A stretch of 64,000 nucleotides of DNA, from positions 682,001-746,000 of the forward strand of contig OY253685.1 in the NCBI GenBank assembly GCA_958009085.1, in the 5' to 3' direction. Of this stretch, positions 2,881 through 25,200 are shown in pieces (position 1 is the first letter of the stretch; each line of letters starts with the position of its first letter). The stretch is from Protoeuglena noctilucae. Lineage: Eukaryota. The notes beneath the pieces were generated by a model. That model was given only the letters and a program-made list of their open reading frames with translations. It searched no databases and was not told the origin of the DNA. The position numbers and the translations under genes are program-made.

Positions 2881-4249
2881 ATGAACGGCTTTATCGAGTC
2901 GCGGGGGTGCTCCACGCCGGGATGCTGCAACCAGCTGTCGCTCAAGGCCGCCGCATGCGGCGAAACCCTATGCACGTCGTGCAGCATGGGCCTGGCACCG
3001 AACAACTCCGGCCGACAGCAATGTGCGAGGCCGGGATGCAACAACTATCTCTCGAACAAGGTCATCGCAACGGGCCACACGCTGTGCAGCTCATGCGCGA
3101 TGGCCGCGCTTCTGAGTGAACGGGCAAAGGTGGGCAGCCGGATTATGGTCGCGCTGTTCTTGATGCGTCGCAGCGCACAGACCAACGGCGTTCGTTCCTT
3201 TCCCGCAGACGGCCCCAGCGTTCAGCGCCGCGACCTCGCAGCCACCGGCGCCGGCGGCGTCCAGAAGCGCAGGAGCGCCCGTAGCGCGGCAGCCCCCGAC
3301 TGGCGCTGGCACTGCCAGCCTCGGCCAGTGCCAGGTCCCGGGGTGCTCGAACAGCATCTCGGTCGCCGCCCTGTCCATGGGCGCCACGCGCTGCGTTGCC
3401 TGCTCGATTGCGAGGCATCCTTCCGTCCCGACCACCGCCCCGCCCTCCGCCCCGGCCGTCACCACGCCCGCCGCCATGCTCCATGACGCCCGCGCGCAGT
3501 GCGAGGTGCCCGGGTGCCACCACTTCCTCTCCGCGCGTGCCCTGGCCATGGGCGACACCAAGTGCGCGTCCTGCCAGGCCGGGAAGGCGCCCGGCCACAG
3601 CCACCGAGTCACGTGCAGCCAACCGGGGTGCAAAAACTTCGTGGCTGACAAGCGGCTGGCCATGGGCTTCACCACGTGCACCTCCTGTGCCACCTTCGAG
3701 CAACTCCTGGCCAGAAACGCCTTGGTGCCACCCACGGCGCAGGCGCGGCAGGTCCCCGCCCCGGCGCAGACCGCGCCGGCGCCGAAGCCCGCGCTCCCGC
3801 AGGGGTCGCGCCCCATGTGCGGCAACGAGGGGTGCAACAACCTGCTCAGCGACCGCATCCTGGCGGCGGGCGGCACCCTGTGCTCGCAGTGCGCGAGCAA
3901 CGACGGGGCGGTGATGCAGAGGCCCGTGTGCGCGCGGTTCGGGTGCCAGCAGTTGATTGCCAACGCGGCGTACGCCGCGGGCGCCCGGATGTGCACCACG
4001 TGTACCTCTGCGGCGCAGTCGGGCGGCGGGCAGCGTGTCTCGGGCGCCCCTTGCGCCATCCCCGGGTGCACGGGTGTCGTCCCTGCCGGCTCCTCGGCGC
4101 TGGGGCAGCTGTACTGCACGGGGTGCGCCAAGGTGCACGGGACTGCGGAGCCCCTGCGCGTGGAGTGCGCGCGGGAGGGGTGCGCGAACCTGCTCGACGC
4201 CGAGAGGGTCGCGAAGTGCCAGCTGTTCTGCAGCGCGTGCGATGCATAG
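2881..4249 (+). CDS. Protein with nine tandem C-x4-C-x15-C-x2-C putative zinc fingers
   Basis: ATG 2881 and a phase-0 GT-AG intron 3130-3208 join two Cys-rich ORFs in frame (~429 aa). Nine motifs have identical Cys spacing. Confidence 0.8.
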
Positions 4250-4412
4250 CGAGGGGCAGAGCTTGCGGGTGCTTGCTTGCCCCGCAGTGCGAGTGCGGTG
4301 CCTAGCGAGGTGTGGGGCTTGCGGGTGCTTGTTCGGGCCCCATTGCATGTCGAGTAGTCGAGGTTGTTGTCATGCCAGCGTGTGCGTTCAATCGATCGCG
4401 CCACGTGCCACG

Positions 4413-4957
4413 TCACACCTCGTCTTCCGTAAGCCTCATGTTGGGCACCCCCTTGTGCACTGCGAACTTGCGACCCGTCTCGGGACACACCAGCGCGCCC
4501 TCCACGAGCTGCAGCTCCAGGAGAGCATGGTGGAACTTCCTGCAACCACGATACATGACAAGTGCGCTCGGTTTCCCAAGACTCAAGGCGCAGACAACAA
4601 TTTGCAAACAGTCTCTGATAGCTCCATTCTCACTTGGCGAAGTCGGCGTCGTCCAGCATCGCCGCGGTCGCCTGCTCGGGCAGCTCGGCATACCCCAGGT
4701 CCCGCGCCCCCTGCACCAGCGCGCCCCAGTGGATGCGGTCGAACATCCGCCTCAGGAACTCCAAGTCCAACTCGGTCTCGATCTCCTGCAAGCGCCGGCG
4801 GGACGCGCCCGGTTGCGCCGGCCGCGGTGGAGCCAAGCGCGCGGTAGGGCAGCCTCGCGCCCCGCACCTTGACCTCCCCGACCTCAATCTTGTGAGGAAA
4901 CCCATTCTGCACGCCCTTGACGTGGCAGCGAAGAAGGTTGTGCAAAAGCAGCTTCAT
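4413..4957 (-). CDS. TRM112: Methyltransferase activator Trm112
   Basis: MKLLLHNLLRCHVKGVQNGFP...|EIETELDLEFLRRMFDRIHWGALVQGARDLG...|KFHHALLELQLVEGALVCPETGRKFAVHKGVPNMRLTEDEV*: hallmark Trm112 N- and C-termini; two introns. Confidence 0.95.
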
Positions 4958-5960
4958 TTCTCCGCCCCCAAAGGGAAGCCGCCACCGTCCTGCCCTGCCC
5001 CGCCGGCGAAAGCGAAGGTCGTCTGAAGTGGCACCCTCCTTAAGTGGCACCCTCCTTTAGTGAGACCTTGGGTCTGGAGCTCCCAGTCCGTCGTGACGCA
5101 GCGCGCGTCGGCAGGCCACAATCGCAGGAGCACGGCCGGGCTGTGTTTGGCCTCTGCGGTGCTCGAATGATCTCTCCGACGCCAAGTGCGTGCCGCGGCA
5201 GCAAAGATAAGAGCGTGCATGCGATGGATGGCGCAAGAGAGCGGTTGAGCCTGAGTTTGTGCCGCACGCCTTGTCAGTAACAACCAGGCGCGCTCGTTGC
5301 GCGCCCCAGGCGCCCCGGGAGGTCACTTTGCGATCGCCTGCCGACCTCGCTCCCCGCACAAGCGGCCTCTCGTTGACTTCTCGTCGGAATAGCGAGCCCG
5401 AGTGTTCGCTGACCTGGACAGGCGATCCCCCCCGCGACGCCGTCGCCCGACGCTTCGTTATATCTCCTGGATGTCCGCCAGCGGATTCTCTGCGGCCAGG
5501 TGGGGCCCCCGCGGCATGCAGCGCCCTCACACCCTAAATTGCGCCTTCAAAGGCACGCCTTGGATCGTGACGCGCTGTCGCCTGCCCGCACGATGCCGTA
5601 CCGTGCTTATTTTGCGCGGCGCGACCCCGCACGACTCGCTGGACGAGATACTCTTTCGTATTTTTGAACGGGCATCGGCGAATCGCCCGCGCGCCCGCGA
5701 TCGGGCTTTTCCAGGCGCCGCCGATCACTCTTGCGGGTGCTTTTCAAACCACGATTGCTGCCTTGCGGCGGATGTCCGGGTTCCCCGCGCCGGGCGATGC
5801 CCCTCCCTTGCAATGTGCAAGGGGCTCGCAGTCCGACTCGCGTGGGGAGATCCGCGCTTTGCTGACTGCGCCCCTGCATTCTTTGTTGTATCAAGCGGGC
5901 TTTCCGCGCTGCGTTTTCGTCGAAGACATGCCGCCCTGCGAACACAGCCGCGGGGGGGGG

Positions 5961-6821
5961 ATGCTCCTGCGGGAATCCCGGCCTTGCGGGCCTTGCGGGC
6001 CCTCGCGCGTCCGCTGGTCGCCCCTCCCGTTCCAGTCGATCGAGGGACGTGCCCACCGCTCCCCTGACTGCAGCGCCGCGTCCGCTCGCGTGCCCATGAC
6101 CGTCCCCGTCCGCCCAGCGTGGCGCCCGAGGTGAGTCGCCGCTTGCCCGGCAAGGCAACGCGTCCGCGTGAAGCTCGCACAGCTGCCGATGCCATCGCGA
6201 CCCGCGCCCGCTCGAAATATTCGCCCGCGTGCCGAGGAGGGGCCGGCGCGGGGCTCCCGCCCTTGGAGCCCTCGACCGGCGGAGCGAGCTCATGACTGCC
6301 CCCGCCGACGCCCCGACGTCTCTATTCCGAGCGCAGAGTCGCGCCTCGACGCTGTCCGACCGCCCCGCGCGCCGCGTCCGTGACGCTCAGCCCCATGCCT
6401 GCGCCGGGGGACTTCGACCACCGCGAGCGCGGCGCGAGCGCCTCCGAGGGCACCATCGTCCAGGACGACCTCGAGGCGATGCTCACGGTCCTCCCGGCCG
6501 ACATCCGCGGCCACCTCCGCACCCACCCGAACCGCAACGCGCTCATTGAGATCGTGCTGGACCTCGGCCGCCGCCCGGAGGCGCGTTTCCAGGGCCTGCC
6601 CGGCGGGATCGTGCTGCGGGAGACGGAAGTCACCAAGGAGGACCTCAAGGCCGCAGGTGAGCGCGCAGCGTCGCGGGGGCGGGCCGCGGACAGCTGCACA
6701 CGCGCTTTGCCAAAGCACCCGCGGCCGGCACTCGCTGCGGGCGCGATACGCCCCCGCCGTGCCTCCCGCGCAGAGATTGCGCTCGGTACGTTCGGCGGGG
6801 ACAACCGCGCGGGGCTCGAGG

Positions 6822-6856
<35 letters not shown>

Positions 6857-8983
6857 CGCGGCGCCATCGTCGGCCTCACGTGCCGCGTGGGGCGCACCGG
6901 TGAGCGTCCCTCCCGTAGCTACGCGATCTCCGCATGTCTCCCTTCGCTCCCGCGACCAGCGCCGCGGCTGAGGACGCCTGCGCGCGTCGCTCGCAGCGCC
7001 TTTGTGCTTGCATGATAGGTTTGCGTCTCCCAGCCCGTAATGCCTGCCTCCGCCCCTCCCGCCCTCGCAGTGACGGGTCAGATCGACATGGTCCGCGACC
7101 TTCTCGAGACCCCCAACTCGATCCTCTTCCTGGGCCGCCCCGGCGTGGGCAAGACGACCGTCATTCACGAGTTGGCCCGCGTCCTGAGTCAGGACCTCCG
7201 CAAGCGCGTGGTCATCTCGACACCAGTAACGAGATTGGCGGCGACGGCGACGTGCCCCACCCCGCCATCGGGGCCGCCAGGCGCATGCAGGTGCGATACG
7301 GCTGCACTACGGTGGCTGGGCTGGCATGGTTAGGCTGAGAGTGCATGTGTGCCGACCACGTTACTCTTACTCATTCAACGACTCCCGCCACGACACCCTG
7401 ACCCACAATACCTCACCCCACCCTCTCCGTCATGCGCACCCTCACCCCCTCTCTCCGTGCACCACGACCCCCTCCCATCCACCCACCTCATCCACCCCCA
7501 CCCTGTCCCCCCAGGTCCCCGACGTCTCCCAGCAGCACCGCGTCATGATCGAGGCCGTCGAGAACCACATGCCCGAGGTGGTGATCGTGGACGAGATTGG
7601 GACGGAGGAGGAGGCGCTCGCGTGCCGGACCATCGCCGAGCGGGGCGTCATGCTCATCGGGACGGCCCACGGGCAGCTGCTGGAGAATCTGATCAAGAAC
7701 CCCACGCTCACGGACCTCGTGGGGGGCATCTCTTCGGTTACTCTGTCGGGTGAGTAGTGGGTGGAGGCGGTGGGGGATGCTTATTGTTGTTGAGGTGCTT
7801 GTTGAGGATCAGAAGAAGCATTTTGTGGGCCATTTGCGGCTGTCACTTCATCCGTCAATGAACAGGCATGCATGCCCAGTCAACTACCACGCACGCTTTA
7901 TCAACCGTCACGCGCGCATGCCCCGGCATTCACCCCCACCTGTCAATCCCCGCAGACGAGGAGGCGCGTGCTCGCGGCACGCAGAAGAGCGTCCTGGAGC
8001 GCAAGGGCCCTCCCACGTTCCCCCTGGTGCTGGAGATGCGGGACCGGGACATGTGGGTGGCCCACTGGGTCGAAGACTCCGTCGATGCCCTCCTGCAGAG
8101 CAAGTGCCCCGTCGTGCAGGTGAGGGGATGAACAGGGTGATGCAACGAACGGCTTGCATGCGCATGGCCATGGAGCTGTGCCTGGTGTTCGCATGGCTGT
8201 GGCTGGTGGTGTCGTTGGCAAGGCAGGCGCTCGCCCTTCACCGCAACTGCCCCTGCCCGACTACACATATGCTCACCCACACCGAGTGCCCACACCGGGC
8301 GCGTTCCGTACATGCCTCTAGTCCACGCTTTGATTCTCCACATTCCCCGCCCCCCCCCCCCCCCCCCCTCATCCCCCCAGGTCCGCTCCCGCGACCGCGC
8401 CACTGGCGCCGTGTCAGTGTCGGAAACGCGGTACGATGCCGCCGAGGATTCCCTCTGCTACGACGACGTGGCGACGTTCGGGGAATATGACGAGGCCGCG
8501 GGAGGGTACGCGCTGCGGGGCCAGGGCCGGGGCTCTGATGGTGGCAGCGGGGGCGTGTGGCGCGGCACGGTGCGGGGGCCGGCGGGGGCGGCGTGGGAGG
8601 CCCAGGCAGCCGCGCAGCGCATGGCGGGCATGTCGGACCAGGACGCGCTGCACGTGAGTCACAACATCGCAATACGATATCGTGTCGTGTTGCATGGCAA
8701 AGAGGGACGGTTGATATTGATATTGGGTGTGTTCGCGGCAATTGGCATCCCCGCCACACTGCGCCTGCCCAACCCCAAACCCCCACCCCACCCTGCGATT
8801 CGATCCCTTTCCCCCTTCCCCCCTTACCCGCAGCACCTGGCTTCCATGGGCCTGGCCGGTCCCTCTGGCGCTGGCACTGGCACGGGCGCCTCTCGCGCTC
8901 GCGTCTTTGCGGGGGGTCCGTCCCAGGGCGGCCACGGCAGGCGCACACGGTCAGGGGCAGCCGCCGCCAAGCGCAGGGGATGA
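5961..8983 (+). CDS. ycf45: Ycf45-like (SpoIIIAA-related) P-loop ATPase, multi-exon; apparent 1-nt frameshift near 7216; start and last exons uncertain
   Basis: Motifs [46 protein letters not shown], Walker [48 protein letters not shown] and LIGTAHG...[10 protein letters not shown], joined by GT-AG introns. Confidence 0.85.
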
Positions 8984-9220
8984 GAGGGTGTCTTTGAGAG
9001 TGTCTCTGAGGGAATCAGAAGGGAGTGCCAGAGAATCAGAAGGAAGTGCCTCTGAGGCTCACCCTGAGTGTTTCTCTTGGAGTATCTGGGAGCCGCTCTG
9101 AGCGTCTCCTGGAGTGTTCTCTGAGAGTCACTTTGAGTGTTTCTCTTGGAGTGACTATGAGGGTGTCAAGACAACCTCAGAGAGTCTCTCTGTGTGTCTC
9201 TCTGAAAGTCTCTCTCGATA
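8984..9220. repeat. Degenerate low-complexity GA/CT-rich tandem repeats
   Basis: Repeated gagtgt(c/t)tct/ctgag units; gaatcagaagg(g/a)agtgcc twice (~9012, ~9033) and tcac..tgagtgtttctcttggagt twice (~9059, ~9128). Confidence 0.6.
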
Positions 9221-9768
9221 CACCGGGCAGTGCGGCAGCAGCAACGCAAGGTTGCTACCCCGCACAGTGCCCACCCCCCCCCGCAGACATCGCACCCTAA
9301 ACAAAGCCCCCCGCCTCGCTTGTTCTGTTTCCCTAATGTCCAACGACGATATAATCGTATCATCACGGGCGGCCCGGTGCCATCACCGCTTTTCTTTAGT
9401 TCTATGGCTGTGTGTCTCATGTCGATAGGGGATTGGCAAGTCTTAGACTAAGCCCCTCTCGCGCCTAGACCCCAGCTGCCCCCCTCGTCAGGACGACCCA
9501 CTTAGGCGTCGTTTCGTCGCTTGCTATTTGCGACAATGCCCTTTTTCACACAGCGAGCCTTTCCTACAGATGGGGTTGCAAGAAAACGGCGCCCCGATGT
9601 TTGAATCCACAATTCATCACACGACACCGGCCACTATCATGTGGGCCGAGAGCGCGAGTGTCACAATAGAAACGGCATAGTCGGCGACTGCCACGCAGCA
9701 GCTACCATTGGCTATCCATGCCACGCCACGCCATTGCGCCTCACCACCCATCCCTCTCTACTCATCCC

Positions 9769-12700
9769 CTACCCATCCGCCACCACCAACCCCGACGTCA
9801 TCTCCTGCAGGAACAGCCCCGGATCTCCCGCCATCTCCTCGGCCAGACCCTCATCGTCCGTCCGCACCGCCACCGTCACCGCATGCACCAGCCCCGCCGG
9901 CCTCACATCCCCCATCCCCATCCCCATCTCCCCAGCCGCCGCGCCAGAGGGAATGCCCGGGAGCCTCGCACGCGGCCCGTCTAAGTCATCCCGGTCCTTT
10001 ACGCCCCCTCTGGGGCTGCCTAGGGTGTCCAGGGATCCCCGGGCAGTGCCGGGGTCGGCCGTCGCATGGGTGGGGGCGTGGGGGGTGGCATGTGCACCAA
10101 CACCGTGTGCTGCGCGCCCCCGGGCGGCTAAGAGGCGCGTGGCGGTGAGGGTTAAGAGTAGGGTGCCCCCCGCCCATGTTTGGCAGGCAAAAGTGAGGGT
10201 CATGGAGTGGCCGGCGTGGGAGGCGTGGGCGGAGGCGAGCGTTAAGGGGCGGTGGCGGAGGGTGGCGAGCAGCTGCGGGGGAGGGTGAGTGGGGGTGAGG
10301 AGGTGTGTGAATGAGGGGAGATGTGGTTGGTTTGTATGAGAGGTGAGAGGTGGGTGGGGCGGGGGGGGGGCTTTGCGGGAGATGGTGGGTGGCGGTGGTG
10401 GGGCTGGCAGACTGAGTTGGCATGCAGGGAACACTCGCGATCGTCGACATCTGAAAATCAGTCGCACTCACACCGTCACCCGCACTCACCAGGGGCAGGA
10501 AATGTGTCGAGGACGCGCACGACACCCCCCTGAGCGTGGCCCGGAGTGGCAGGGCGTCCCACAGCAGCCGAAACGTCTCCGCTGGCATCGCGCCAGAAAC
10601 GGGTCGCAGCATGGCGGTGAGGGGCATGGCGAAGGACCCGCAGGCGAGGGCGTAGCGCCAGGTGGGGCGGGCGGTGGCGGAGCCGGGGTGGGAGCTGCGT
10701 GTGAAGGGGAGGGGGGGTTGGTGGCAGGGAGGTAGTTGGGGGGTGCAGGTGTGCGGGTGTGGGGGAGGGCGAGTGGGCTGTGGTGGGCGGTGGCGGAGCC
10801 GGGGTGGGAGCGAGGGGAGGGGGGGGGGGGGTTGGGTTGTAAGAGGGGTGCGGTGGTGAGATGTGAGAGATGGTGAGTGTGAGAGATGGTGGGTGGTGGC
10901 GGAGCTGGGGTGGGAGCCGCGGGGAGCGAGGGACGGGGAGGGGAAGGAGGGCTGAGAAGATGGGTGCAGGTATGGGGATAGTGGGAGAGGGCGAGTGCGT
11001 GTGATGTGGTGGGTAAGCTGACCATGATAAACATGCACATTGGCCATATATAACAATAGCCATGCGTTATATGACGATTAAGAGCTCCTCGCAGCCCTCT
11101 CGCCTCTCCGCCACCGTTGCAGGCCCCGCCACCACCCCCGACCCCCTCCCCCCGCTCGCCCCCAGCCCGCTGCTGTGGGTGCTGGTGAGCCCCGTGTCGC
11201 GAGGCGTGGCTTCCTCGGCGTCCCAGTCGATGTAAAAGGAGGCCCGGACGCGGCACGAGGAGCGGACCTGGGGGGTATGGGAGAGGGGATTGGGAGATGA
11301 GGGATGTGGGATTTGAATGAAGCGTGAGGGGTGCGATATGCGGAATTGGAATGACTGAACTGACCATGATAAAGCAATGCGGACCCCACGCCTAGAGTTG
11401 CAGTTCTGAAGTCGATATCTTCAGAGCCACGACATGCACCCCCAACAAGCCCATCACATACAATACAACACACGCCCATCAACCCCCCCACATCCCTCAC
11501 CTCCAGATGCAGCTCCGTCGCCGCCTCGTCCCTCGCCCCCAGCAGCGGCAGCGCCCACACCGCACTCGGACCCAGTCCCAGGTTCGCAGCCGCAATGGCC
11601 CCCGGCAGCCCCACGCGCACCGCCATGTTGGCAATCGGCACGTCCAGTCGGTTAATCACACGGAGGGTCAGGCGCACGCGGCAGAGGTCTGAGAAGGGTG
11701 GGGGATGGGTGGATGGGGGGTTGTTGGTATGGTATGTGATGAATGGACGCGGCACAGGTCTGAATGGGTGGGGGTGGATTGGGGGGTGTTGGTATGTGAT
11801 GGGGATGGGGAGAGGTGGCACAGGTCTACGGGTGCAAGTGGCTGGCGATGCAGCCACCACCATCCTGTCTTGCAAGCTGCAAGCACTTTTGCCCTCATCC
11901 AAACAGCCCCGCCCCACGCCCCAACCACCCCTTATCTCCTTATCTCCCCAATGCCCATACCCTCACCGGGCATGACCTCGCCAGAAACCTCCACCCTGAC
12001 GGGGTCCCCCACGCCTGACACGGGCACACTGGCAGGGCCTGACTCGGCGCCCAGGGCCGCGTCGCCGGGGCCAAAGAGGCAGCCCGCCAAGTCTATCAGA
12101 TTGGGATCATCCATCTCTGTTGACATGAGCTGCGGGATGGGTGAGCAAGTGAGTGGGTGGGGAGTGAGTGGTGAAGTAAGTCGTGCATGAGGGTGGGGTG
12201 AGAGAGTGGTCAATCAGGTGGGGGTCGTCCATCTCTGTTGATAGCAGCTGCGGGTGATTGGTGGGGTGAGTGGTGGGTGGGTGGTTACATGGTTATTGAG
12301 ATGCGGGTCGTCCAGCTCTGTCAATAGCAGCTGCGAATGGGGTGGGTGGTGGGTGACTGGGGGTGCGAGGGTGATGGGTCGTGAGTGTGGGGCAAGTGGC
12401 AGTCTCAGCGCGCATAACAATGCTGAGAAATGACTTGTGACACTCATCACACACAACCCCTCTCTCACCAGCCTGCGCATGCTGACCCCCCCCACCCGCG
12501 ACGTCCCGTCCAAGAGCGCCAACACCGCGCGCGAGCGACTCAGGCCGCGCAGAGAGCGACGCTCGCGCTCCCAGTCCGTCTGGGCGGAGAGAGAGTTGTT
12601 ATGATGATGAGACAACGTTGCATTAGAAAGACACTACATTATGAATAGTACTACTATTATCGCACACCCCTCGACATCACCCCACCCCACCCCTAACATC

Positions 12701-15700
12701 ACACATACCGACACCCCCAACCCATTCCCACCCCACTCACCTCCTCCACCGCCGTCCCGTCCGCATGCACCGCCGCCGCCGCCCCCGTCAACAGCGCCTG
12801 TGCCGCACTCAGCGCCCCCGCCTGCTGCCCCCACTCCACACAGGCGGGCGCGGACGCGGCTAACGCCCACCCCACGCCATAAACAGCCGCTTGCAACAGC
12901 TGCGCTGCGTCGGCTGATTGCGGGGAGGAGAGGTCGACGCCGGGGGCGGTGAATGCGGCGTCGGTGGGGCTGAGGCGGCTTCGCGTGTCAGACAGGCCGG
13001 CGGCGATGACGGGGTGGTCTCGCTTCATCTCCTTGGCCATGCCCTGCACCACTTGCTGCGAAGGGAGGGGAGAGAGAGGGGGTGCCTGATTGGCCATGCT
13101 CTGCACCACTTGCTGGGGGGGCAGGGGAGAGAGAGGGTGATTAAGAGAGGGGGACACACAACAAGCTGACACGCACGCAACGAAGCCGTCTCATGCCACG
13201 TCATCCCAACCACATCCTCCCAACCAAGTCATCCATTGCTCATAACACATCATCCGCGCCCCACCCCCTCCGTCATCATCTCACGTCCAATGCCGCGCTG
13301 ACGCGGGGTGACAGCGCCCGGAGTGGCGTGGCACTGGCGGCGATGGTGACCAGGTCTCTGGCAGCCGCCGCCACCCGGTGGAGCTCGGGGGTGTCCTGGA
13401 CGCTCGAGGAGTCCGCACGGGCCATGCCGGACTGCGAATGGGGTAGTGATAGTGATAGCGATGGTGATAGCATCCATCTTATATTATAGCCAAAAATCCC
13501 ATATTACTTGTCTAATTGTCAGCAATATTTATCTCTTATCGTTATCAGTATCATGTCCTTTTATGAATTTATCGTTATCATCCTCCTCCTCTCACCTGCA
13601 TGGCTTCCATGACGTGCATCCCCACCCAGTGCAGCATCGCCACCAGTGCTTCTCCAAGCATCGCCATGGACGGCCGGCTCAGTCTGACGCCGGGGTCGGG
13701 GAGACTCCAGCACTCGTCGGGGCGGTGGGGGGGGGCGCGGGACTGGCCGGACTGGGGTGGGGAGGGAGGGGGGGTAAGGGGTGGTGGGTGGTGGGGAAGG
13801 CAATAGGTGGGTTGACGCGGTGGCTGCGATGGTGCGTGGTGAGGTGGTGAATGGGTGAGGAGTGACCTAGGGATGGCAACAAACATTCCACTTAATAACC
13901 CGCTATTCAATCCCCTCACCTCCACCACCCCCTCACCACCACCACCCCACCCCACCCCTCATCCCCTCACCTCCACCAGCATCCGTACCGCCCTCATCCA
14001 CCTCGGCTTGGGGCTCTCCCCCGCATCGCCGCCCAGTCGCAATGGGGACGGCCCCATCATGCCCTGCACGTCCGCCTCCGCCCCCGCCTCGGCCACTCCG
14101 TCCGTCATCAGCCGGCAGAGGGCGGGGACGGCATCGGACAGGCCGCGGATGACGCGCTCTGTGGATGGGCACGTAATTGGGAAGATTACAGGGTTGCGCA
14201 CTAAGACATAAAATCATGAAGTGACACTTATAAAGAGAGTGAGGCGTCGGACAGGCCGCGGATCACGCGATTCCGGGGGGGGAAGGGAGATGGGGATAAG
14301 TGTCAAGCATTTACTCCGCTATGATCTGCTAATGTCGATTGTACTTAACCCACCCATTCCCCCATCTCTATCCCACTCACCCAGGTGCCCCTGCTCCCCC
14401 ATCCCTACCCACAATCAGATTTATTAGACTCATCAAATTTATCACATCATCATATCCATCACTCACCCAGGTGCCCCTGCTCTCCCAGCCTCCCGTGGTG
14501 CACCCCCAGCCACAGCAGCATGACCAGCCGGTGGGGCAGCACCCGGTCTGACGCCTGAAACGCGTCCGCCAGAACCTGGTGCAGCTCGCGCTCCAATCGA
14601 CCCAGCTGGGGGGAGAGGGCAGCGGGGGCAGATGGTGGTATTTATGATAGTTAGTCTATTGAAGGGATTCAAGAGCGAATGGTCGTTACTAGTTGTGGAT
14701 AGTACCATAGTAACAAAAGAATGTATTATATGGTATAAATCAATTTTAAATGTACATTCAGTCTTACTCCCTTCACCCTCCACCACCCCTCACCTGTGCT
14801 GCGTGCGGCACAAACGGTGCCGTCCCCTCCTCTGCCCCCCCACCGCCACCCCCCTCGCAAGACGCCAGCGCTGTGCGCAGCAGTGAGCTGCACATCTGCG
14901 CGAGTGCTGCCCAGAGGTGCACGGCCGCGTCTGATTCGGGGGAGTCCCATGTAAGGCACAGGATGGTGAGGCGCAGGACCTGGGGGGGTGGGGAGTGGGG
15001 TGAGGGGTGAGGGGTGAGGGGTGAGAGCGGGGTAAGCACGTGAGGAACAAAAATCGTTGGCACCCCACCTGCATGCTCAGCGCCAGCCACAGCACCCATC
15101 ACACACACACCCCTTCATGCTCAGCGCCAGCCACTGCACCCATCACACACACACACACCTGCATGCTCAGCGCCAGCCACTGCACGTGTCGGTCCACGGC
15201 CGTCGGCTGTAGGGGCCCCTCGGGACGCCCCTCCGCCTCCACTGACGCCGCCTCCTCGGCCGCAAGTGCCTGCTGACCGCTCGGGTGACTGATCAACGCC
15301 TGGGATGGTGGTTGAGAATGTGTGATGATTGGTGATGATGTAGTACAAAGTGCAGTGGATGGACGTCGAAACCTTTCACACCTCCCTCTTCACTGCTACC
15401 CGCTCGCACCCCATCCACCCGAATCTTACCTGCAGCATCACCACCACCATCTCCACCCGGAACACCCCCACCGCCAGCCCACCCACACCGCCCACACCAT
15501 CACCCGCCACCCCCCCACTGCCCCCCTCCTCCTCCGACCCCTGCGCCCCGGCCAGCCCCGTTGGGATGGGGAATACCCCCGGAAAGACCTTCCAGGGCGG
15601 CTTGATGCGCTCGGTGGGGTCAGAGGCGAGGTCCAGGAGGGCGGCCACGTCGCGGCTACGGAGGCAGCCCAGGAGGACCCTGGGGGGATGGGAGTGAGGG

Positions 15701-17916
15701 AGTGTGAGAGTAAGAGAACATGAAATTTACATCATATGGCGGTAACCGGTGAAGAGGTGAGAGCAATGGAGCGGGGGCGGAGTTATGACCAAAGCCCCAT
15801 GCATGTTTCGTCTCACAACCTCATCCCCCCTCTCTCTCCCACCCCCTCTCGCCTGCTCTGGATGTCGTCGGCGCGGCACAGGTCAAAGTCCAGAGCGGCC
15901 GCCACCGCGTGCGCCATCGCTTGCACCCTCGATGCGTGGTCCACCACCTCACGCCCCGCCACCCACAGGAACCAACCCAATGATAGAGGGTCCAATTTCC
16001 CTCGATGCATCACGTCGACACGCAGGATGGAGCGGGCGTGGCGGCACAGCAGCGACGGGCACGACTGCAAAGGGAGGGGGTTGTGCGGGAGTGAACATCT
16101 ACTCGTCACTTGCCAGCGATAATGTTGAGACTCTTTATTGGATGAGATGACGATGTGCGGCTCTTCTACATCACCCCACACACTGTCACCCACCAACACC
16201 TGCCCACCATCCCCACCACCACCAGCCCTCGCCTGTTGCGCGATGTCGCCCGTGACCATCAAATGCAGCAGCACCTCCGCGGCCTCCCGCACCAGCGCCA
16301 CCCCCGACTCAGGGACGTACCCCGCCGCCACCAGACCCTCCCCCACGCCCCCCCACGCCACCGTCCGGCTCAGGTCAGACGTACCGGCCAGACCGTATGC
16401 ATCCGCCAGCCCCAGCACAGCCCTGGCAGATTCAAACGCCACCTCCGGAGCCACGTGGCGCAGCTCCCGGCCCAGCGCGGCCAGCGCCGGGGGTAGCAGC
16501 TGGGGCCAGCCCTGCAGCGCCCCCGACCACACGCCCGGCATGGCCCGGGCAAAGAGCGCTCCGGCTGAAAAGGCAGGGCGCCCGCCGGACACGTGACAGG
16601 CCGCGAAGGCCAGCGCCTGCCACGCGCGCACGGCTGCTACCGCCCAAGACCCCCCCAGCCCCTGCATGCGCTGGGTGAGCGCCCCGGCTGCCGACGCGCA
16701 TGACGAGCAGACGTGCTGCGACGCGGCCCTGGCGCCCATCAGCGACTCCTGCGCCCGCGGGAGCTGCATCGCCGACCAGGGCGGGGGCGGCGCGGGGTGG
16801 CCCGACAGCTCACATGCGAGGCTGCGGGTGTGGGGTGAGGAGGCGTGCATGTGGAACAGTATGGTGGCTATGATCTCTATCGGGAAGATGAGTAATCATA
16901 CCTATTATCATTGTTTATCTTCTCACCTGCCCAGGGTGGCCCCGACCGCAGCGCAGGGAGCGTCGGCCACAATGCCGCGCACCGCCGTGCTGCGCAGGAG
17001 AGCGGCGAGGGCGTCGAGTGCGCCGGCACACACGGCGTCGTCTGCATCCATCGTCGCGTCCAACTGCACGGGGAAAAATCTCAGCAGGTGGTCAATACGA
17101 AAAGCAGCTGCATGCTCCGGTGGTGTGCACGATGCCGGCGTCTGCAGGCTTTAGTTAGCAACGCGAAGCAGAACATGTCGTAGTACGAGTCCATCGCTGC
17201 GACGTGAGAGCCGCAGCGCGCGGAGACTCACGAGCATCTCGAGCAGGCACATGAAGTCGCGGTGTTCGGTCTCCCCCAGCGCCGCCCGGCGCTGGAAGTC
17301 CTCGCTGGTCACGGCCCATCCCGCCAGGCGAACCGCAGCGGCGCGCACGGACGGGTCGGGGTCCGAGAGCTGCGCGGAGACGGCCTCCGGGGGCGCAGCG
17401 CGGCGCAGCAGCTCGGCCGCGGCCGCGTGGGGAGCCGAGGCGCCGAGGGCGAGGAAGTCCACGCGGTCTGGGACGATGAGAGAAGCAACTTGTCAAAGGC
17501 GCTGCCGATGGGAGCGCGGGGAGCTGAGCGACGCTGGGAGGCGCGTCCGGGGCAGGCGAGCGCACCTGTCGGACGCAGGTGCGAGACCGATCCCACGTCG
17601 CGCAGGGCCTCCGTCACATGAGCGGCGATGTAATGCCACTGCGAGAAGCCAGAGAACAAGCGGGAGCTTCGAGTTTGCGCCAGGCCGCGAGAGCACGCAA
17701 AGCACGGCTCTGGTTCGCCGGGATCTCTTCGAGTTGCCGCGATTGGACCACCGATGGATGTTCGGTGCTTGCCTCGAATATCGGTGCTCCGCTGGCGTCC
17801 TTCTGTGCGAGGAACGCCTGCGCGCTGCCCCGGTCACTGTACTCCGCGGGCGTCGAGTGCTCCACGGCGAGGGGCGTCTCCACCACCGCTACATCCCCGG
17901 CCTCCGATCCGTCCAT
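9769..17916 (-). CDS. TPLATE: TPLATE-like large subunit of the TSET/TPLATE adaptor complex, many exons; termini approximate
   Basis: Exon translations align in order with recalled plant TPLATE: PEVAFESARAVLGLAD (~PALIFEVGINMLYLAD), SRVQAMAHAVAAALDFDL (~DRMHALACICRTALCVHL), CLTWDSPESDAAVHLW (~CVKWDCDGRTYAVDCY), VSGVGDPVRVE...VRLTLRVINRLDVPIANMAVRVGLPGA (~LTGSSDPCYIE...VTLHLKIINLTELELNRVDIRVGLSGA), LACGSFAMPLTAMLRP...ETFRLLWDALP (~LRCQPYKIPLTELLLP...EFFRLWPSLP), FACQTWAGG (~YAAKTWHGG). Confidence 0.8.
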
Positions 17917-18323
17917 GGCCCATACCGGCGCGTCCGCCAGCCGGGACGCGGCGCTGTGGAGGGCCCTGCTGATGTTGAGAAGTGCAAGCCCTTTTGAGCA
18001 GTCGATTTTGCGGGGAAGGAGCGAGACGCAAGCCGCTGACGATTTCTTATGAGCGAGATATGATCAGATGGGACACACTAGCGGCAATTCAGGCACGCAA
18101 CGCGCGTGTCTGCAGCACGACTTGCGTGTACGCATCAGTCCCTTCGTTCAAACGCGCCCGGGCACTGAAACTCGGATCAAGCTCCCGGCTACAACCCCTG
18201 CACCTCGCCGCCGCGCCGCTCAACCACGCCCTCAAACACAAATCCCCATGCACCGAGCCGAATCGTCATCGCGACCTGTGGCACCCTTTCCCAGCCCCTG
18301 CGCCTCCATCGACCTCCCTTCTT

Positions 18324-21300
18324 TCACTTGGCGACTTCCTCGGTGTCCCAGCGCACGACCGGGATGCCGGGCATGGCCTCCTGCGCCCCCTCGGCGCCCT
18401 CATCCGCAGACGTGACGTGCAGGTGACGCAGCCCCAGGGACTTGCAGAGGTAGTCCAGGTTGTCCAAGAGGGCCTGGCGCTCGTCGAAGGTGAGGCGGAC
18501 GCTGCGGGGACGACACGAGTCGAAATATAAATAGCAATGTGGCATTGGAATTGGCATGGGCTGATTGGCTGGATGCTGGCGGTGCTCGCAGAGGCGGACG
18601 GATTTGTGTGTGTCTGAGGTGTGCAGTGGCTGTGGCATTAGAGACAAGCTGCCCCAGTCACCACCCGCTGCAATTATAACAACCATTCCAGAGAAACAGT
18701 CACCTTAGCCACCACCACCACAGCAAGCCACCCCATCATGCATCGCCAACGCACCCACTATCATCACCACTCACCTGAGCACGGACGCCCCGCCCACCTC
18801 CGCCTCCTTCCCCTTGTTCTTCAAGAAGGGCATCACCAGTCCCTTGCGCTGCTTGTCGCTCTTGTCCTGCAGCGAGGGGTGGCCCTGCAGGGACTCCATC
18901 GCGCGCTCCTCCCACCCAGCGACAAACGTGCGCGTGTCGGGGTTAAACAGGCCCTGGGCCACCTGCGGGGATAGACAGGGGGGTGGGAGATGGTGTATGT
19001 TATGAACATGTAATACATGTTCATAACAACACACAACAACATGTTGTGTTAATGCAAGTGTGTCGGGGTTAAAGAGGCCCCGGATCATGCACACTGCCAA
19101 CCCTGCCCCCCCGCTGCCAACCCCCGTACTCCTCCGCCACTCCCCCACTCCTGCAATCCACCCCTCACCTCCAGCACCGCCCGCTGCCACCCCCCGTACT
19201 CGTCGGCCACCACCACCGTGCCCCCCACGACCTTGAGGGCCGGCCCCTTCTTCTTCGGGCTCTCCAGCTTAGCGATGGTGGTGCGCCACAGCGCCACCTG
19301 GCGCTCCAGGTACGCGGCCGCGGCCTGGAGGGAGTAGTCGGGCTCAGGGACCTGCGATGGAAGGGGAGAGGAGAGAGGTAGGCGTGTGCGTGTGCGTGGG
19401 TGGGTGTGCGGGTGTGAGTGTAGGGGTGTGTCCACAACTCCCTAGTCACGATCACCCATAGTACTAGTAATAGTAATAGTAACCAGTGAGTATCAACGCA
19501 CCTGCGGCCACCCCGCCTTGATGACGAGCCCTGGCTTCTTGAGCACCTCCCCCCAGATGTGCTCGCAGTAGTGGGGCGTGATGGGCGTGGTGATGAGCGT
19601 CGACACCTCCACGTACTTTTCCACTAAAACGCGGTTCAGGGGGGTGTTGGAGAGGGAGCAGATGAGGCTGGGGGTGATGGGGAGGGGGAGAGTGTGGATG
19701 AGATGTGGGTGAGTAGGGATGAGAGAGAGAGTAGATGAGGGGTGGAGGGGGGTGTTGGAGAGGGAGCAGATGAGGCTGGGGGTGATGGAGAGAGAGGGAG
19801 CAAAGTGTCAGCATTAAGCTGCTGTTCATCCTACTTTCATCACACGCACTGCAACCCTCTGCCTACTCATCCTCACCGGTACTAGTCCCCTGCCAGCTGC
19901 AGGTCACACACACCTCATCCACCATTATTGCCACTTATCACCACTACCCCACTCTCTCACGCTCACCGGTACTGGTCCCTCGCCAGCTGCAGGTCGAACA
20001 CGCTGATCTTGAGCGCCTCGCGGAACAGGTACTTAGAGTATGCCACCTTGGCGGTGTGAGCCGCCAGGTTGATGGCGTTGTCAAACACGCGATCGGCGTA
20101 CGTGGCTGGGGGTCCGTCGCGGAGGGGGGAGGCGAGCACCTCCTCAATCCACGACAGCTCCTGGGGTGGGAGGGGATGAAAGGGGGTGATGGAGATGTTT
20201 GGTGACTGGTTGAATGGATAACTGTGAGAAGATCAATGTTGTTATGGCTTTGATGAGGCACACCATTACAAACACCATTACATATACACACTCGCCTTGG
20301 TCATGCGCAGGATGGCCCCGTTGGCCACCGTGACCTCGAAGTTGGCGTCATCCACGCTGTCACCCGCATCCGCCAGGCCGAAGCGCAGGGCATCGGCACC
20401 GAACTCCGCCACGGCCTCGGAGAGCGTTTTGAAGTTGCCTGGGGATAAAATGGGGTAAAGAGATGACATGGGTAGTATTTAAATGAAGTGGGCGAAGTGT
20501 CACTGCCTCGGCGAGCGTCTTGAAGTTGCCTGGGGTTGTTCAGGAGAGGTGGGATTAGGAGAGGCATATTGAGTTTGGGTGCGATAATGGATGGGTGGTC
20601 ATTACTAATACATCTCAATATACTATCTCCACCTCCCTCACCCGTCGACTTGGACATCTTCTGCGCGTTGAGCAGCAGGTGCCCGTTGCACCGGAACGCC
20701 CTCGGCCACTTGTCCTTGCCGAACAGCGCCACGTGGTTGTACAGGCAGAACGTGAGGTGGTTCTGGATCAGGTCCTTGCCAGAAACGCGCAGGTCGAAGG
20801 GATACCAGTACTCGAACTCGCGCCGGCACGCGTCGGCGGCCTCGCGGGGCACGCGGATGGCGTCAGACCAGGGTTTGCCCTGGAACACGTAATCCCAGAA
20901 GGGGCCGTCGCAGGCGTCCGCGGGGATGGGGGAGCAGCCGGGGCGGCCGTACATGTCGCCGCCCTGTATGTAGGGGTGTGGGTGGGGGTGGGGGTGGGGG
21001 TGGGGGTGTGGGAGTTGATGCCAACAACGCGTGCACATTACCAACAATCAACAATCAACAATCACCCCCCCCCCCCCCCCCCCTCGCCCCATCCCTCAAC
21101 CACCACTGCTGATCCCTCAGTCACCACCGCTCACCTGCAGGATGTGCGCCACCGTGTAGAACGCCATGTAGATGGTGGAGTCCGAGAGTGACTCGATGAG
21201 ATAAGTCTCATCAAAGGGCAGCTTGGTGCCGAGGCCGAAGGAGCGGGAGCATGCCCACTGCTGCAGCCACCCCAGCGTGTGCTCGAAGCTGTGGCGGACC

Positions 21301-24300
21301 TCGGGGTGGAACGTCTCCAGCTGAGAGAGGGCCTCCTCTGGGGGGGAGACGAAGGGATGGCTGTATTGAGTACTAAACGATGAAACTATAGAACAACATC
21401 ATCCATCATCAATGAATAATCACTAAAATAAAATGTAAATATAAATAATACATCAACATACTCATCATTAATCATGAAATAATTTCAATAATGATAAGCG
21501 GATGAGTGTACGATAATGCGACACTACCCCTATCATCCACACCCTCACCTGCCATCTTGCGCCACTCCTCCTCCCCATACACCAGGTACCACTGATCCGT
21601 CAGCGCCACCACACACTGGTCGCCCGACCGCGACACCACCTCCTTCTCCGGCTGCAATAACAGGGATAGATAGATTGAGAAGGTTGATGGTAATGTTGGC
21701 AGAAGAGAGGGAGAGAGAGAGAGGCAGCCGCAAGGCCTGTCCTATCATATATGCTGTATTTCAGAAATATTATTACTATTATAACACTATTACAACTAGC
21801 AATCATCTACGTACAATCTAACAGTATCCACACGTCCTCACCTCCGAGTAGATGATGGCCTGGTTGGCCTCGACCATCTCCTGCTTGATCAGCGGCTTGG
21901 CCACCTGCACCTTCTGCCCCTGGTACTTGCCCACCAGCATGACGCCGTCCGTGAAGCCCTTCAGATACGTCATGCCCTTGGCCTCCTCGAGCTTGGCGCG
22001 GTCGTTCTGGGACTTGATCTTCAAGTCCGTGCACACCTGTTGCGAAGGGTTGGGAATGAGGGGTGGGGAGTCACACATGTTGTGTTGGTTTTACATGTAC
22101 ATGGCATTACCATTAATGTATACAATTATAATACATATTCATGACAATCGCCAGTCCACCATCGCTGGACCATCGATCGCCACCATGATCGCGAGCTGTG
22201 GCCGCATTACAAGGTAACGTCCGATGCATGAGATTACATCTCCCCACCTTGACCGCGGACGTGTCGCCGAATTCGGGGATGTTGATGATGGGGATGACCT
22301 CGTAGGGCATCACCCACTCGTCCTGGATGCCCAGCTTCTCGCGGAAGGCCGGCTTCTCCTTCAGGTCCATCAGAGCCCTGAAGTGGATCGAAGATCATTG
22401 GTAAATAATGATTATAGTAATAGTAATAGTAATAGTAATAGTAATAGTAATAGTAATAGTAATAGTAATAGTAATAGTAATAGTAATAGTAATAGTAATA
22501 GTAATAGTAATAGTAATAGTAATAGTAACAATCCTCGCCTGTAGTCATCCGGGGAGTCCGAGGGCACGGACGTGACGACCCCGGTGCCCTTGCCCATGGA
22601 GATGGTGAGCAGGGGCAGGACGTAGATGCGCGCGTGGGGGGTGTGGGGAGACGACAGCGGCACGCCCATCAGGTCCTGGCCCTGGAGCGTCAGCAGCACC
22701 TCGGGCTTGCCCGTCTGCGATGAATGGGGAAAAGAGGGGTCAGGTGCACACTTCAGGTATGCCCCGTCTGCGATTGTGAGAGGGCGGGCTTGAGCTGCGA
22801 CTCGGGCATCACTGTGTCATCACCGCACCTCGTACCTCGCACCCTCTCCAGCAACCCCTCTTAACAGCAGTGCAACCCCCTCACACACACACCCCCACCC
22901 ACCCTCACCTCCGGCAGCCTGTCCTGGTACGACAGGTTGAGTGCCGACCGCTGCGACATGACGTACACGTCCTTGTTAAACGCCCTCACGGCCACGTACT
23001 CCCCCTCCGGCAGCACCCAGCAGTTGGTCTGGCCGTACATGGTCTCGGGGCGCAGCGTGGCGGACAGGAAGAAGACGTCGTGGCCCGCCAGGGCTGCGGG
23101 GGGAAGGAGGGCACGGGAGGGAAGGTAAGGAAAGGTTTTCTGGTTGTGATGATATCGCTCAAACTCCGTCAGTGCCCTTTCAGGGAACAATGTACTGCCT
23201 ATCATACTTTGGCGTGATGAAACTCACCTGCGAGCTTCCCCGGCAGCTCCAGTGCCTTCATCTTAATGAGCACGTACTCCTGAGGCCCCACGCCCTCCCC
23301 GGTCGCACGGTCGTGGTCCGCGCAGGGCTGGTTGTCGAGAGGGGAGAAGATGGCTGCGGTCATAACAAGCACAGGGATGGTTGCCTGCCATAGCCAGCGC
23401 AGGGATGGTTGTCAAAAGCAGCCATCTAAGCAAGATGGCTGTGGCCATGGTGAGGAGCGAGCTTGCCAAGAGACGAGACGACAGCCCAGCCAAACTCCAA
23501 AGAGCGACTTACGGGAACATTGCTCCCTGTATTGCTGCCTGTGGCTGCCTGTGTCGCTGGCCACGCTGCACCGAACATCGACTGAAGATCGACCGAACAT
23601 CGACTGACATTGCACGGAGAGCGTGAGACTGTCACTCACCGTACCGCTTGTCCTTCACCACCCGCCCCTGCGCCTTGAGCGTGTTGAACTGCCACCGGAT
23701 GAAGCGGTCGTAGTACGGATTCACCTCCGTGGTCACGAACGACCGGCGCCAGTCCACCCCGCACCCCATGGCCTCGATGTCGCGCTGCGGGGAGGGCAAG
23801 CACACCGACGGCGTCGATGGCCACGTCGCATCGTCCCAGCGACTAAAACCCACGTAAGCTATGCAGATCCGCATCGGGTGTCACACCAGGGTGCGCGCCT
23901 GCGCTGCGCCGTCGACTCCCCGCCACACTCTTGTCCACAGTTAAGTTCACGCTAGTCTCTGCACGCGCGCATCGCGGCGAGTGGCCCGGCCCCCACCTTG
24001 GCCAGCGGCGGGAAGTACTCCAGCCAGTGGATGGGGTCGGAGAAAGCGGGAATCTCGTCCTCGGGGATCCCCGATAACCGGAGGATGTCCCACTGGGTCG
24101 CCCCCGCCGTCTTCGCGGCCAGTTTGGACTTCTTGCCCTTGGCCTTGTTCTCCTGAGAGGATCGCGGTTTGAGTCACCCGATCGCACTTTTCCTACAGGC
24201 GTGCGCTCGTTGCCACCCGTGAGCCGAAGATCGAGAGAGATGGGACAGCGCATCGTCCGACGTCCAGTTGCCGCTCCGCGCTTCGCCACGCCGCATTCCG

Positions 24301-25200
24301 CTGACGTTCCCTCACCGTGCCGGCCGCCGGCGCTGCGTCTTGCTCTGCCGCCGCATCGTCGTTGCCGTCCTCCATGTCCCCGTCCTGGCCCTTGGTGAAG
24401 TCCGGCGGGCAGCCGTACACCTGCAGCTCCCGCGCCAGCTTGCCCGCGGCCGCCTGGATGGGCATACCCGTGCAGTGGAAAGCCTGGGGGAAGAGCACGT
24501 TCTTGCCGCACAGGCGGTGGAAGGCGCAGGCGAACTGCGGGGCGGGGAGATCAGGAAGCGAGTCGATAATCGTTTTGCAGCTGAGTGCGCAAGTGCCGAG
24601 CCGCGCCAGGGCCGGTCGACAAGCGGGTGTCGCGGGCTGGAGGATGCGCAAATCGGCTGCAATGAAAAGCCCGTCTCTCAGCGTGCCTTGGCGCGGCATC
24701 GAGAGGCACAGCGCCACGCACCTCGAGTTTGGAGAGCGAGAAGGCGTGGCCGATGTGGAGCCGGCCGTTCATGTACGGGTACGGGAAGTTCCCGTAGAAC
24801 TTGTTGTCCTTGTCACCAGGCCCGTCGGCATTGGACTCGAACGCCTGCAGCGACCGAGTGCATCCTTTCAGAGCAGGGCGAGGGCGGCCCCGGGGGACGG
24901 CTGCACACGAATGCCATGTATATCAGGTCGTCAGTCATTCGCCCACACCTTCAGAAGCTCCCATTTCTGCTGCGCCCCGGCCTCGATGCGCTGGAGGGCG
25001 TCGCGCTTGGCGCTGCAGGCGAAGACAGGGCCGTCGATGAATCAGGCTTGCCAGCGCACAGCAAGTGGTCCGCAGCCCAGGCGAGGGCGACGGGAAATCC
25101 GCGGCACGTCGGGGGGCACGCCGCCCTGCATCGTCCGGCGACCCCCCCGCCCGCAGAGCCCCTCCGATCCTCACGTGGACTGGCCCCCCTCCGCCGCCAT
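18324..25200 (-). CDS. LARS1: Cytosolic (eukaryotic-type) leucyl-tRNA synthetase, many exons
   Basis: [19 protein letters not shown]..., [20 protein letters not shown] (HIGH motif), [52 protein letters not shown] and [16 protein letters not shown] (KMSKS motif); ends ...RWDTEEVAK*. Confidence 0.97.
19641..19795. repeat. Intronic direct repeat (~40 bp, 2 copies) in LeuRS
   Basis: ggggtgttggagagggagcagatgaggctgggggtgatgg occurs at ~19641 and ~19750. Confidence 0.8.
22415..22528. repeat. (TAGTAA)19 microsatellite inside a LeuRS intron
   Basis: Perfect hexamer array visible in the sequence, within intron 22378-22538. Confidence 0.95.

Follow-up and report, generated by a model that had tools for sequence, protein, structure and literature searches.

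Direct copies of exon edges inside the adjacent introns of two neighbouring genes in a Protoeuglena noctilucae contig

How does an intron come to contain a copy of the very exon edge that it adjoins? The question is raised by two neighbouring genes on contig OY253685.1 (assembly GCA_958009085.1), deposited as Protoeuglena noctilucae, in which a first-pass annotation had noticed degenerate intronic copies of the adjacent exon junctions. Our analysis covered a 64,000-nucleotide (nt) stretch of this contig, positions 682,001 to 746,000, referred to here as the window. Both genes lie on the minus strand, and their 19 + 19 = 38 introns provide 76 junctions:

9769-17916, minus strand: 20-exon gene, labelled 'TPLATE' in the first-pass annotation (identity unconfirmed), with 19 predicted introns in a hand-curated model.
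18327-25200, minus strand: cytoplasmic leucyl-tRNA synthetase (LeuRS) gene, with 20 exons, 19 introns and a spliced open reading frame (ORF) with no stops.

All 13 coordinate groups named in that annotation proved to be direct, imperfect repeats, both in a repeat search and in our own scans. In every family one copy is found at a modelled exon–intron junction or no more than 11 nt from it, and the rest lie inside the adjacent intron. These intronic copies, here called echoes, are all direct, 13–60 nt in length and 83–100% identical to their source, and they sit 44–126 nt from the junction on the source side of the intron. Three further families came to light, namely 19633/19741, 23320/23397/23369 and a weak donor echo in intron 22037-22247. 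Each junction was represented by a 48-nt query (40 nt of exon and 8 nt of intron), and its score in its own intron was compared with the maximum over the 37 other introns (the null maximum). The echoes are as follows, with T and L denoting introns of the 20-exon and LeuRS genes, respectively, and 'real' the copy at the exon edge:

T-I18, intron 10695-11103, minus strand: acceptor array, real 10671-10696, echoes 10787-10812 and about 10893-10918, both echoes without AG; score 29 against a null maximum of 19; the local repeat pair 10781/10887 scores 25.
T-I16, minus strand: acceptor array of period 71/66, real 11676-11692, echoes 11747-11763 and 11813-11829, both echoes retaining AG; homology between spacer and flank, z = 2.8–2.9.
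T-I15, minus strand: acceptor array of period 118/83, real 12091-12136, echoes 12209-12254 and 12292-12337, both preceded by CAG; score 30 against a null maximum of 10; the copies translate as LMSTEMDDP, LLSTEMDDP and LLLTELDDP.
T-I13, 13033-13137, minus strand: simple tandem duplication of 57 nt spanning the acceptor, 90% identical over 48 nt.
T-I11, minus strand: donor echo of identical 18-mers, real 13961-13978, echo 13910-13927; score 17 against a null maximum of 14.
T-I10, intron 14159-14466, minus strand, acceptor: real 14130-14156, echo 14243-14269, without AG (repeat search).
T-I10, same intron, minus strand, donor: real 14460-14487, echo 14374-14401, GT kept (repeat search).
T-I8, minus strand: donor tandem array of period 44–46 with 2.8 copies, real 15158-15200, echoes 15112-15154 and 15068-15110; Tandem Repeats Finder (TRF) array 15061-15185, period 44, 91% matches, score 213.
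L-I18, intron 18963-19168, minus strand, acceptor: real 18934-18954, echo 19060-19080; junctions RNA-confirmed.
L-I18, same intron, minus strand, donor: real 19180-19210, echo 19110-19140; junctions RNA-confirmed.
L-I16, intron 19668-19966, minus strand, acceptor: real 19633-19692, echo 19741-19800, 60 nt at 90%; score 39; junctions RNA-confirmed.
L-I16, same intron, minus strand, donor: real 19962-19995, echo 19872-19905; score 30; junctions RNA-confirmed.
L-I14, minus strand, acceptor: real 20410-20444 (GNFKTLSEA), echo 20501-20535 (GNFKTLAEA); junction RNA-confirmed.
L-I10, intron 22037-22247, minus strand: 22177-22280, weak older donor echo about 39 nt into the intron, 25/33 matches; score 15 against a null maximum of 10.
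L-I8, minus strand: short acceptor echo, real 22709-22721, echo 22763-22775; score 14 against a null maximum of 10.
L-I6, minus strand: acceptor-side echo, real 23320-23336 (17 nt inside the exon), copies 23397-23413 and about 23369-23385; score 16 against a null maximum of 13; TRF period 28.

The association with junctions survives a series of controls. Specifically, when introns were aligned with their flanking exon ends, the junction's own intron won at 16 of the 76 junctions of the two genes, where about two wins are expected. The winning scores range from 14 to 39, against null maxima of 9 to 20, and even the shortest group (22709/22763, 13 nt) outscores all 37 other introns. With an inverted (reverse-complemented) junction query the own intron won at 2 of 76 junctions, which is the chance level, and with a mirror (reversed) query at 5 of 76, by small margins. 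A query from the exon interior, 52–99 nt inside the exon, produced a single win in 48. Queries from the intron centre against the rest of the same intron produced 4 in 31, three of them echo against echo and the fourth a microsatellite.

A scan for ungapped local repeats led to the same picture. Between 9772 and 25200, at a threshold of 14, there are 23 direct repeats with spacings of 25–400 nt, versus none at 1025–1400 nt and none at 2025–2400 nt. Fifteen of the 23 touch an exon or junction, and the other eight are intron–intron pairs: six are echo against echo or belong to a shared array, a seventh falls in the region of the T-I18 array, and the eighth is a 14-mer common to two introns. The last of these, CTGACCATGATAAA, occurs in identical form at 11018-11031 (T-I18) and 11360-11373 (T-I17) and is the sole local repeat not tied to an exon edge. 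Generic slippage, as the annotation had recognised, would show itself in equally frequent duplication away from junctions; no independent intron-only duplicate was found in either gene. Outside the two genes, local repeats are mainly coding repeats (periods of 144 nt or 333–393 nt), with a perfect 38-nt duplication and a few others.

Sequence of the window occurs in public runs of marine metagenomes and metatranscriptomes and in others labelled as a single organism; contigs from their DNA and RNA were compared over 4001-22400. In one run (X1), which is labelled as an organism and comes from a different study than the metagenome that may have been the window's source, contigs cover 4001-15025 and 14996-19667 without a single differing letter. 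The repeat at 19633/19741 interrupts them, the behaviour expected of an assembly graph that meets a genuine repeat, and one short contig bridges both copies. Introns 17064-17231 and 18502-18774 contain possible decayed acceptor echoes (20/29 matches, and 21/25 with a 3-nt gap), whose scores only equal the null maximum; these suggest a continuum of ages.

The gene models on which the junctions depend are of unequal standing. For LeuRS the annotation's label is borne out by a match to cytoplasmic leucine-tRNA ligase in PDB (6kie and relatives, E = 9e-29), and the translation shows the KMSKS region. RNA contigs from two runs (X9 and X11) fix six 3′ introns exactly, at 18502-18774, 18963-19168, 19352-19501, 19668-19966, 20161-20295 (GC-AG) and 20439-20641; our statements on RNA joints hold among the joints listed. 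A small splice and codon model was trained on these six introns and its output then corrected by hand. The model of the 20-exon gene translates as a continuous ORF with no stops and a length divisible by 3. RNA cover of this gene is thin and partly unspliced (pieces 11208-11824 and 12565-12983 from run X10), and the start of one RNA contig piece, 10272, coincides with that predicted for the last exon. A few motifs are reminiscent of plant TPLATE. The label could not be confirmed: single-exon queries returned no match in the homologue search, Pfam (four exons), PDB (two exons) or Atlas. GC-AG introns make up 6 of the 38 by prediction (20161-20295, 22378-22538, 16065-16232, 15680-15852, 10695-11103 and 17639-17772), five of them with the donor GCGAG, and RNA confirms one, 20161-20295.

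With respect to their architecture, the echoes fall into two kinds. In the tandem-array kind, the spacer is itself homologous to at least one flank (z = 2.0–4.6), as in T-I8 (44–46 nt), T-I13 (57), T-I16 (66–71), T-I15 (83–118) and T-I18 (106–116). Homology spans nearly the whole unit in T-I8 (43/44) and T-I13 (48/57), as it does in the 38-nt duplication (38/38). In the block-plus-spacer kind, a block of 17–60 nt that is 90–100% identical is set off by a spacer of 33–105 nt unrelated to the flanks; here belong T-I10, L-I18 and L-I16 (both sides of each), T-I11, L-I14 and L-I6. The T-I10 spacers, for instance, have z values from −1.4 to 0.2. Along with the exon edge, an echo usually takes in the splice site and from a few to 25 bases of intron. 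A single order is common to the three introns that have echoes at both ends: the upstream exon is followed by a spacer and the copy of that exon's edge, and after the middle come the copy of the downstream exon's edge, a second spacer and the downstream exon. L-I16 and T-I10 give the impression that an older intron of about 100 nt, now in the interior, was lengthened at each end by a separate event.

Two further observations concern L-I18. The AT-rich spacer between its acceptor junction and the corresponding echo contains a 41-nt near-perfect palindrome (92.7%, about 18993-19032). The middle of this intron was also considered as a cDNA-derived copy of the spliced exon–exon junction. The alignment is compatible by eye, and the idea was dropped; it is not general, because the echoes of L-I16 and T-I10 hold intron bases and splice sites.

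The differences between echoes and exon edges bear on the age and direction of change. The earlier impression that the copies often differ at third codon positions is confirmed by counts from one real/echo pair per family (13 pairs): mismatches number 8, 0 and 19 at positions 1, 2 and 3, out of 114, 116 and 113 sites (binomial p = 1e-4 for position 3). Within the intronic part of the repeated blocks, 9 of 92 sites are mismatched. A scan of metagenomes with a LeuRS exon yielded 80 loci, the best with 66% protein identity gene-wide and 74% in the query exon; no relative of the 20-exon gene was present in those loci. This closest LeuRS relative, metagenome contig L001 (2757-5939), is intronless over amino acids 10-1073, versus 19 introns here, and most of the other relatives fetched are likewise in a single piece. 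The 19 LeuRS introns therefore look lineage-specific, with loss in the relatives as the alternative. With L001 as outgroup, five changes fall on the exon lineage (R>Q, E>D, H>N, A>S and AAG>AAA), the echo keeping the ancestral state, and five fall on the echo lineage, including R>G, D>G and Q>stop. Four echoes retain the amino acid of L001 where the exon has changed, and in L-I14 it is the echo that retains the Ala of the intronless relative. By this comparison of sequences, an echo acts as a fossil record of its exon edge.

Consistent with the earlier proposal that echoes lengthen introns, the 12 echo introns average 262 nt, versus 169 nt for the other 26 (Mann–Whitney p = 9e-5), and 131 nt once the echo units are removed. 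By our own reading the splice dinucleotide is kept in 13 of 19 copies (AG in 8 of 13 acceptor copies and GT in 5 of 6 donor copies), which makes most copies potential decoy splice sites. Two acceptor echoes would, if used, add an open in-frame insert: that of T-I13 adds 57 nt, or 19 codons without a stop (ORF 12702-13190), and that of L-I16 adds 108 nt. The claim of decoy or alternative sites thus stands as far as the presence of potential sites goes; as for their use, no echo site is used in the contigs that cross three echo introns. The X9 and X11 contigs, which drop rare isoforms, contain only exon-contiguous sites at L-I14, L-I16 and L-I18. Regulated unproductive splicing, also suggested by the annotation, finds no support in these two runs, rare isoforms being invisible in contigs. 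Splice-site turnover fares no better, as 18 of the 19 LeuRS intron positions align without a gap to the intronless relative and the echo junctions have no indel. The single position beside a gap is that of L-I4, which has no echo and adjoins a gap of 6 residues in a low-complexity linker. Separately, composition-based prediction produced tiny false exons at 14381-14404 and 22843-22859 that are echo or decoy sequence, and automatic annotation of the present genome may make similar errors.

Taken together, these observations are best accommodated if the echoes are scars of short duplications (about 44–126 bp) that arose in break repair, straddled junctions and were filtered by selection, a reading that we consider probable on balance. 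Staggered breaks, or nicks on opposite strands, would be followed by fill-in of the overhangs and end joining, giving a tandem duplication, sometimes with filler between the copies. A duplication internal to an exon would break the frame and be lost, while one spanning a junction would be harmless as long as the spliceosome used the exon-contiguous site. The spare copy would then turn into intron and drift, the exon copy staying under protein-level selection, and this difference would account for the third-position excess and for the ancestral amino acids in echoes. The net effect would be introns that grow by 45–230 nt and carry decaying decoy splice sites.

Selection of this kind goes some way towards explaining the position of the echoes. 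In a placement model where units of 44–126 nt land uniformly and only intron-only or junction-spanning placements survive, 35–84% of the tolerated placements span a junction, depending on unit length, because the introns, with units removed, are only about 100–200 nt long (exons about 130–200 nt). The junction-focused process of the first-pass annotation is thereby upheld in its observation, since all 15 families are anchored at junctions, and weakened in its cause, since survivorship explains much of the bias. In addition, a perfect 38-nt tandem duplication of the same size class, at 39851-39926 (2.0 copies, 100%, no microhomology), lies in coding sequence, within the minus-strand ORFs 32847-40790 and 39806-43456. 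It encodes ALATALGNPLGG twice and shifts the frame between the two long ORFs. A very recent mutation, a polymorphism or an error of assembly may account for this duplication; its position inside a giant ORF implies that the raw duplication process hits exons too.

Several points weigh against this account. That all 15 families span junctions is an outcome of probability about 10^-3.3 if tandem duplications fall uniformly, and of about 10^-8.7 if the repeated block is taken for a target duplication, and the lack of any independent intron-only duplicate among the two genes' introns adds to the difficulty. Some extra bias or a visibility effect therefore remains after the survivorship filter (P about 10^-3.3). 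The latter may arise if the G- and C-rich simple ends of introns, which probably decay fast by slippage, lose their duplicates sooner than complex exon-derived blocks. In eight families the spacer is not homologous to the flanks (z from −1.6 to 2.0) despite a block that is 90–100% identical, which is not the outcome predicted by simple tandem duplication and uniform decay; one has to suppose that filler was inserted or that low-complexity intron sequence decayed very fast. L-I18 minus both of its units would be an intron of 10 nt, and the tandem model is impossible there. The absence of second-position differences (0 of 116) contrasts with the 3.5–5.7 expected for free drift, a rough estimate from the 9/92 intronic mismatches. 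Finally, 13 of the 19 LeuRS introns and all 19 of the 20-exon gene are predicted without RNA confirmation, and all of the evidence comes from two genes in one window.

The alternative that fares best replaces chance placement by breaks aimed at intron borders, whether by introner-like cleavage or at nucleosome edges, with repair duplicating the border. The introns of these genes look recently acquired; were they derived from transposon-like introners, or were exons wrapped on nucleosomes and introns placed in the linkers, nicks or abortive cleavage at intron ends would put breaks right at the exon–intron borders. The junction excess left over after the survivorship model (10^-3.3 to 10^-8.7) and the want of intron-only duplicates are what such a process would leave, as are the three introns with separate events at both ends and the contrast between intronless L001 and the 19 introns here. 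Exons of the two genes are mostly 103–250 nt, a size near that of the nucleosome, as has reportedly been noted for Micromonas introners. The G-rich 5′ and C-rich 3′ intron ends are, moreover, complementary class-wide (mean 7.3–7.7, versus 4.9–5.1 for mirror and direct controls). Against targeted breaks, this complementarity is not intron-specific (own intron 7.72, other introns 7.32) and may be composition only, for which reason we rejected terminal inverted repeats specific to an intron. The 38 introns form no family either: an all-versus-all blastn returned the echo arrays, one microsatellite, one palindrome and a few low-scoring matches of 23–36 nt. Introner target duplications measure 3–9 bp (PMC9860276), whereas the repeats here measure 13–60. 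We regard border-directed breakage as unlikely, and the corresponding view of junctions as mutational hot spots, in which breaks at recently gained intron borders are repaired with duplication of the junction, is to us equally doubtful.

A lower place still must be given to preservation of echoes for a function, as decoy or alternative sites in unproductive splicing or as an exon-like aid to recognising lengthened introns. The 13 of 19 copies that keep AG or GT, the open inserts of T-I13 (+57 nt) and L-I16 (+108 nt), the better preservation of exon-derived blocks than of neighbouring intron-derived sequence and the second codon position unchanged at 116 sites would all suit a functional role. 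They are opposed by the exclusive use of exon-contiguous sites at L-I14, L-I16 and L-I18 in the contigs of two RNA runs, by loss of the splice dinucleotide in six echo copies, by a stop codon in one and by non-conservative changes on the echo lineage (R>G, D>G, Q>stop). A bias of spacings to multiples of three, which we tried as a separate candidate, was rejected with 7–8 of 19, near the one third expected. We therefore think a selected role for the echoes improbable.

Creation of the introns themselves, either with target-site duplication by intron-creating elements or through tandem duplication of an exon segment containing AGGT, appears very improbable. The introns seem lineage-specific, and two copies around an unrelated spacer have the formal shape of a target duplication. 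Such events, however, predict crossed copies separated by one intron length: the downstream exon would be copied at the 5′ end of the intron and the upstream exon at its 3′ end. None of the 16 hits is crossed; each is on the side of its source, 44–126 nt away, in introns of 179–409 nt, and the double-echo introns place the upstream copy first. Many echoes include 5–25 nt of intron with its splice site, which implies that the intron was already present, and the known introner duplications are only 3–9 bp (PMC9860276). Assembly artefact, such as haplotype stutter or collapsed reads, scarcely merits belief even though the window probably derives from a metagenome assembly, given that contigs of an independent run have 0 differences over 4001-19667 and break where a true repeat would break the graph, that the copies have diverged (83–96% identity), that spacers are unrelated to flanks and that the pattern respects reading frame and splice sites.

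In terms of known systems, intron gain or sliding by tandem genomic duplication is said to have been described by Hellsten et al. in 2011 and Lehmann et al. in 2010. No displacement of junctions is seen here in comparison with intronless L001. PMC3443670 reviews how introns can originate from tandem genomic duplication. There, as in our genes, splice signals lie within the segment that is duplicated, and the surplus copy is spliced out, leaving the coding sequence unchanged. What differs is that a new intron there arises from exon with crossed echoes, whereas here an existing intron is extended and the echo stays on the same side.

Small tandem duplications below 100 bp have been attributed to breaks with complementary overhangs that undergo fill-in and end joining (Schimmel et al. 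2021, PMC8355091). The likeness lies in a size of tens to about 100 bp, in the exclusively direct orientation and in occasional filler, and our 38-nt event, too, has no microhomology. Those duplications are induced or somatic and fall at arbitrary sites, unlike the echoes, which are fixed in the germ line and found almost only at junctions, at 16 of 76 in two genes. The array of T-I8 is very like the minisatellite in intron 7 of human F7, whose first 37-bp unit spans the exon 7/intron 7 boundary and repeats the 5′ splice site (PMC1557585). There, a tandem array anchored on a donor junction supplies several pseudo-5′ splice sites, and splicing takes place at the one contiguous with the exon. 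F7 is a single mammalian locus, whereas here donors and acceptors are both involved, in 12–13 of 38 introns, and a good number of the cases do not form a tandem array.

Algal precedents are also instructive. Like Micromonas and other algae with introners, this is a marine, GC-rich picoalga with many lineage-specific introns and GC-AG donors (PMC3879977 and PMC9860276). Unlike introners, the 38 introns of the two genes include no repeated family, the donor is GYGAG rather than GYGCGT, and the duplications are 13–60 nt on one side of the intron instead of 3–9 bp target duplications at two ends (PMC9860276). In Ostreococcus tauri, integrated DNA was accompanied by a 518-bp direct target duplication and 55–83 bp of filler (PMC8002553). 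The two cases share a marine picoalgal setting and a direct target duplication flanking short filler of unknown origin, the resemblance being to our block-plus-spacer echoes. They differ in that the O. tauri events were experimental plasmid integrations, whereas ours are natural, with blocks of 13–60 nt and spacers of 39–105 nt. Non-exhaustive searches of the literature turned up no description of an alga whose introns often repeat the neighbouring exon edges, and no account of exon-edge copies at a fifth of a gene's junctions.

Some other features of the introns and of the window deserve record. GC content runs from 0.56 to 0.73 per 2 kb, and the window has 24 AT-rich islands (stretches of 50 nt with GC below 0.40), of which 19 fall within introns of the two genes (11009-22553). 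Introns that bear an island are G-rich towards the 5′ side, AT-rich at the core and C-rich towards the 3′ side; the 5′-most introns of both genes are GC-rich throughout and have no strong echo. Microsatellite sequence is represented by an (ATAGTA)n tract of 19 copies at 22414-22528, which occupies most of LeuRS intron 22378-22538, and by a 4-copy (ATAGTA) run at 19458-19482 in intron 19352-19501. Just downstream of the stop of the 20-exon gene, tandem units of 21–24 nt occupy 8984-9215, where the summed depth of RNA contigs in X10 is about 1434 versus single digits nearby; at 90% likeness this figure may include other organisms. Two arrays of a 144-nt (48-codon) repeat with common motifs, at 29741-30061 and 47929-48394, are probably coding repeats of two related genes. 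Elsewhere in the window is an FtsH exon that Atlas places no more narrowly than eukaryote, with green-lineage clusters as its nearest look-alikes.

The growth of introns after their gain is poorly documented, and its steps are visible here at a fifth of the junctions in two genes: a short duplication, retention of the exon-contiguous splice site and decay of the spare copy. As small fossils, echoes could polarise and date changes in genes without close outgroups. If survivorship is all that is involved, the pattern is the ordinary result of frequent small duplications in a compact, intron-dense gene and would serve mainly as a caution for gene prediction, since decoy sites and in-frame pseudo-extensions misled prediction here. 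If the junction bias is mutational, it would tie together intron gain, chromatin or transposon activity and break repair in a testable way. Should junctions prove to be hot spots, young introns would have a dedicated route by which to grow, gain spare splice sites and leave a datable record of the exon.

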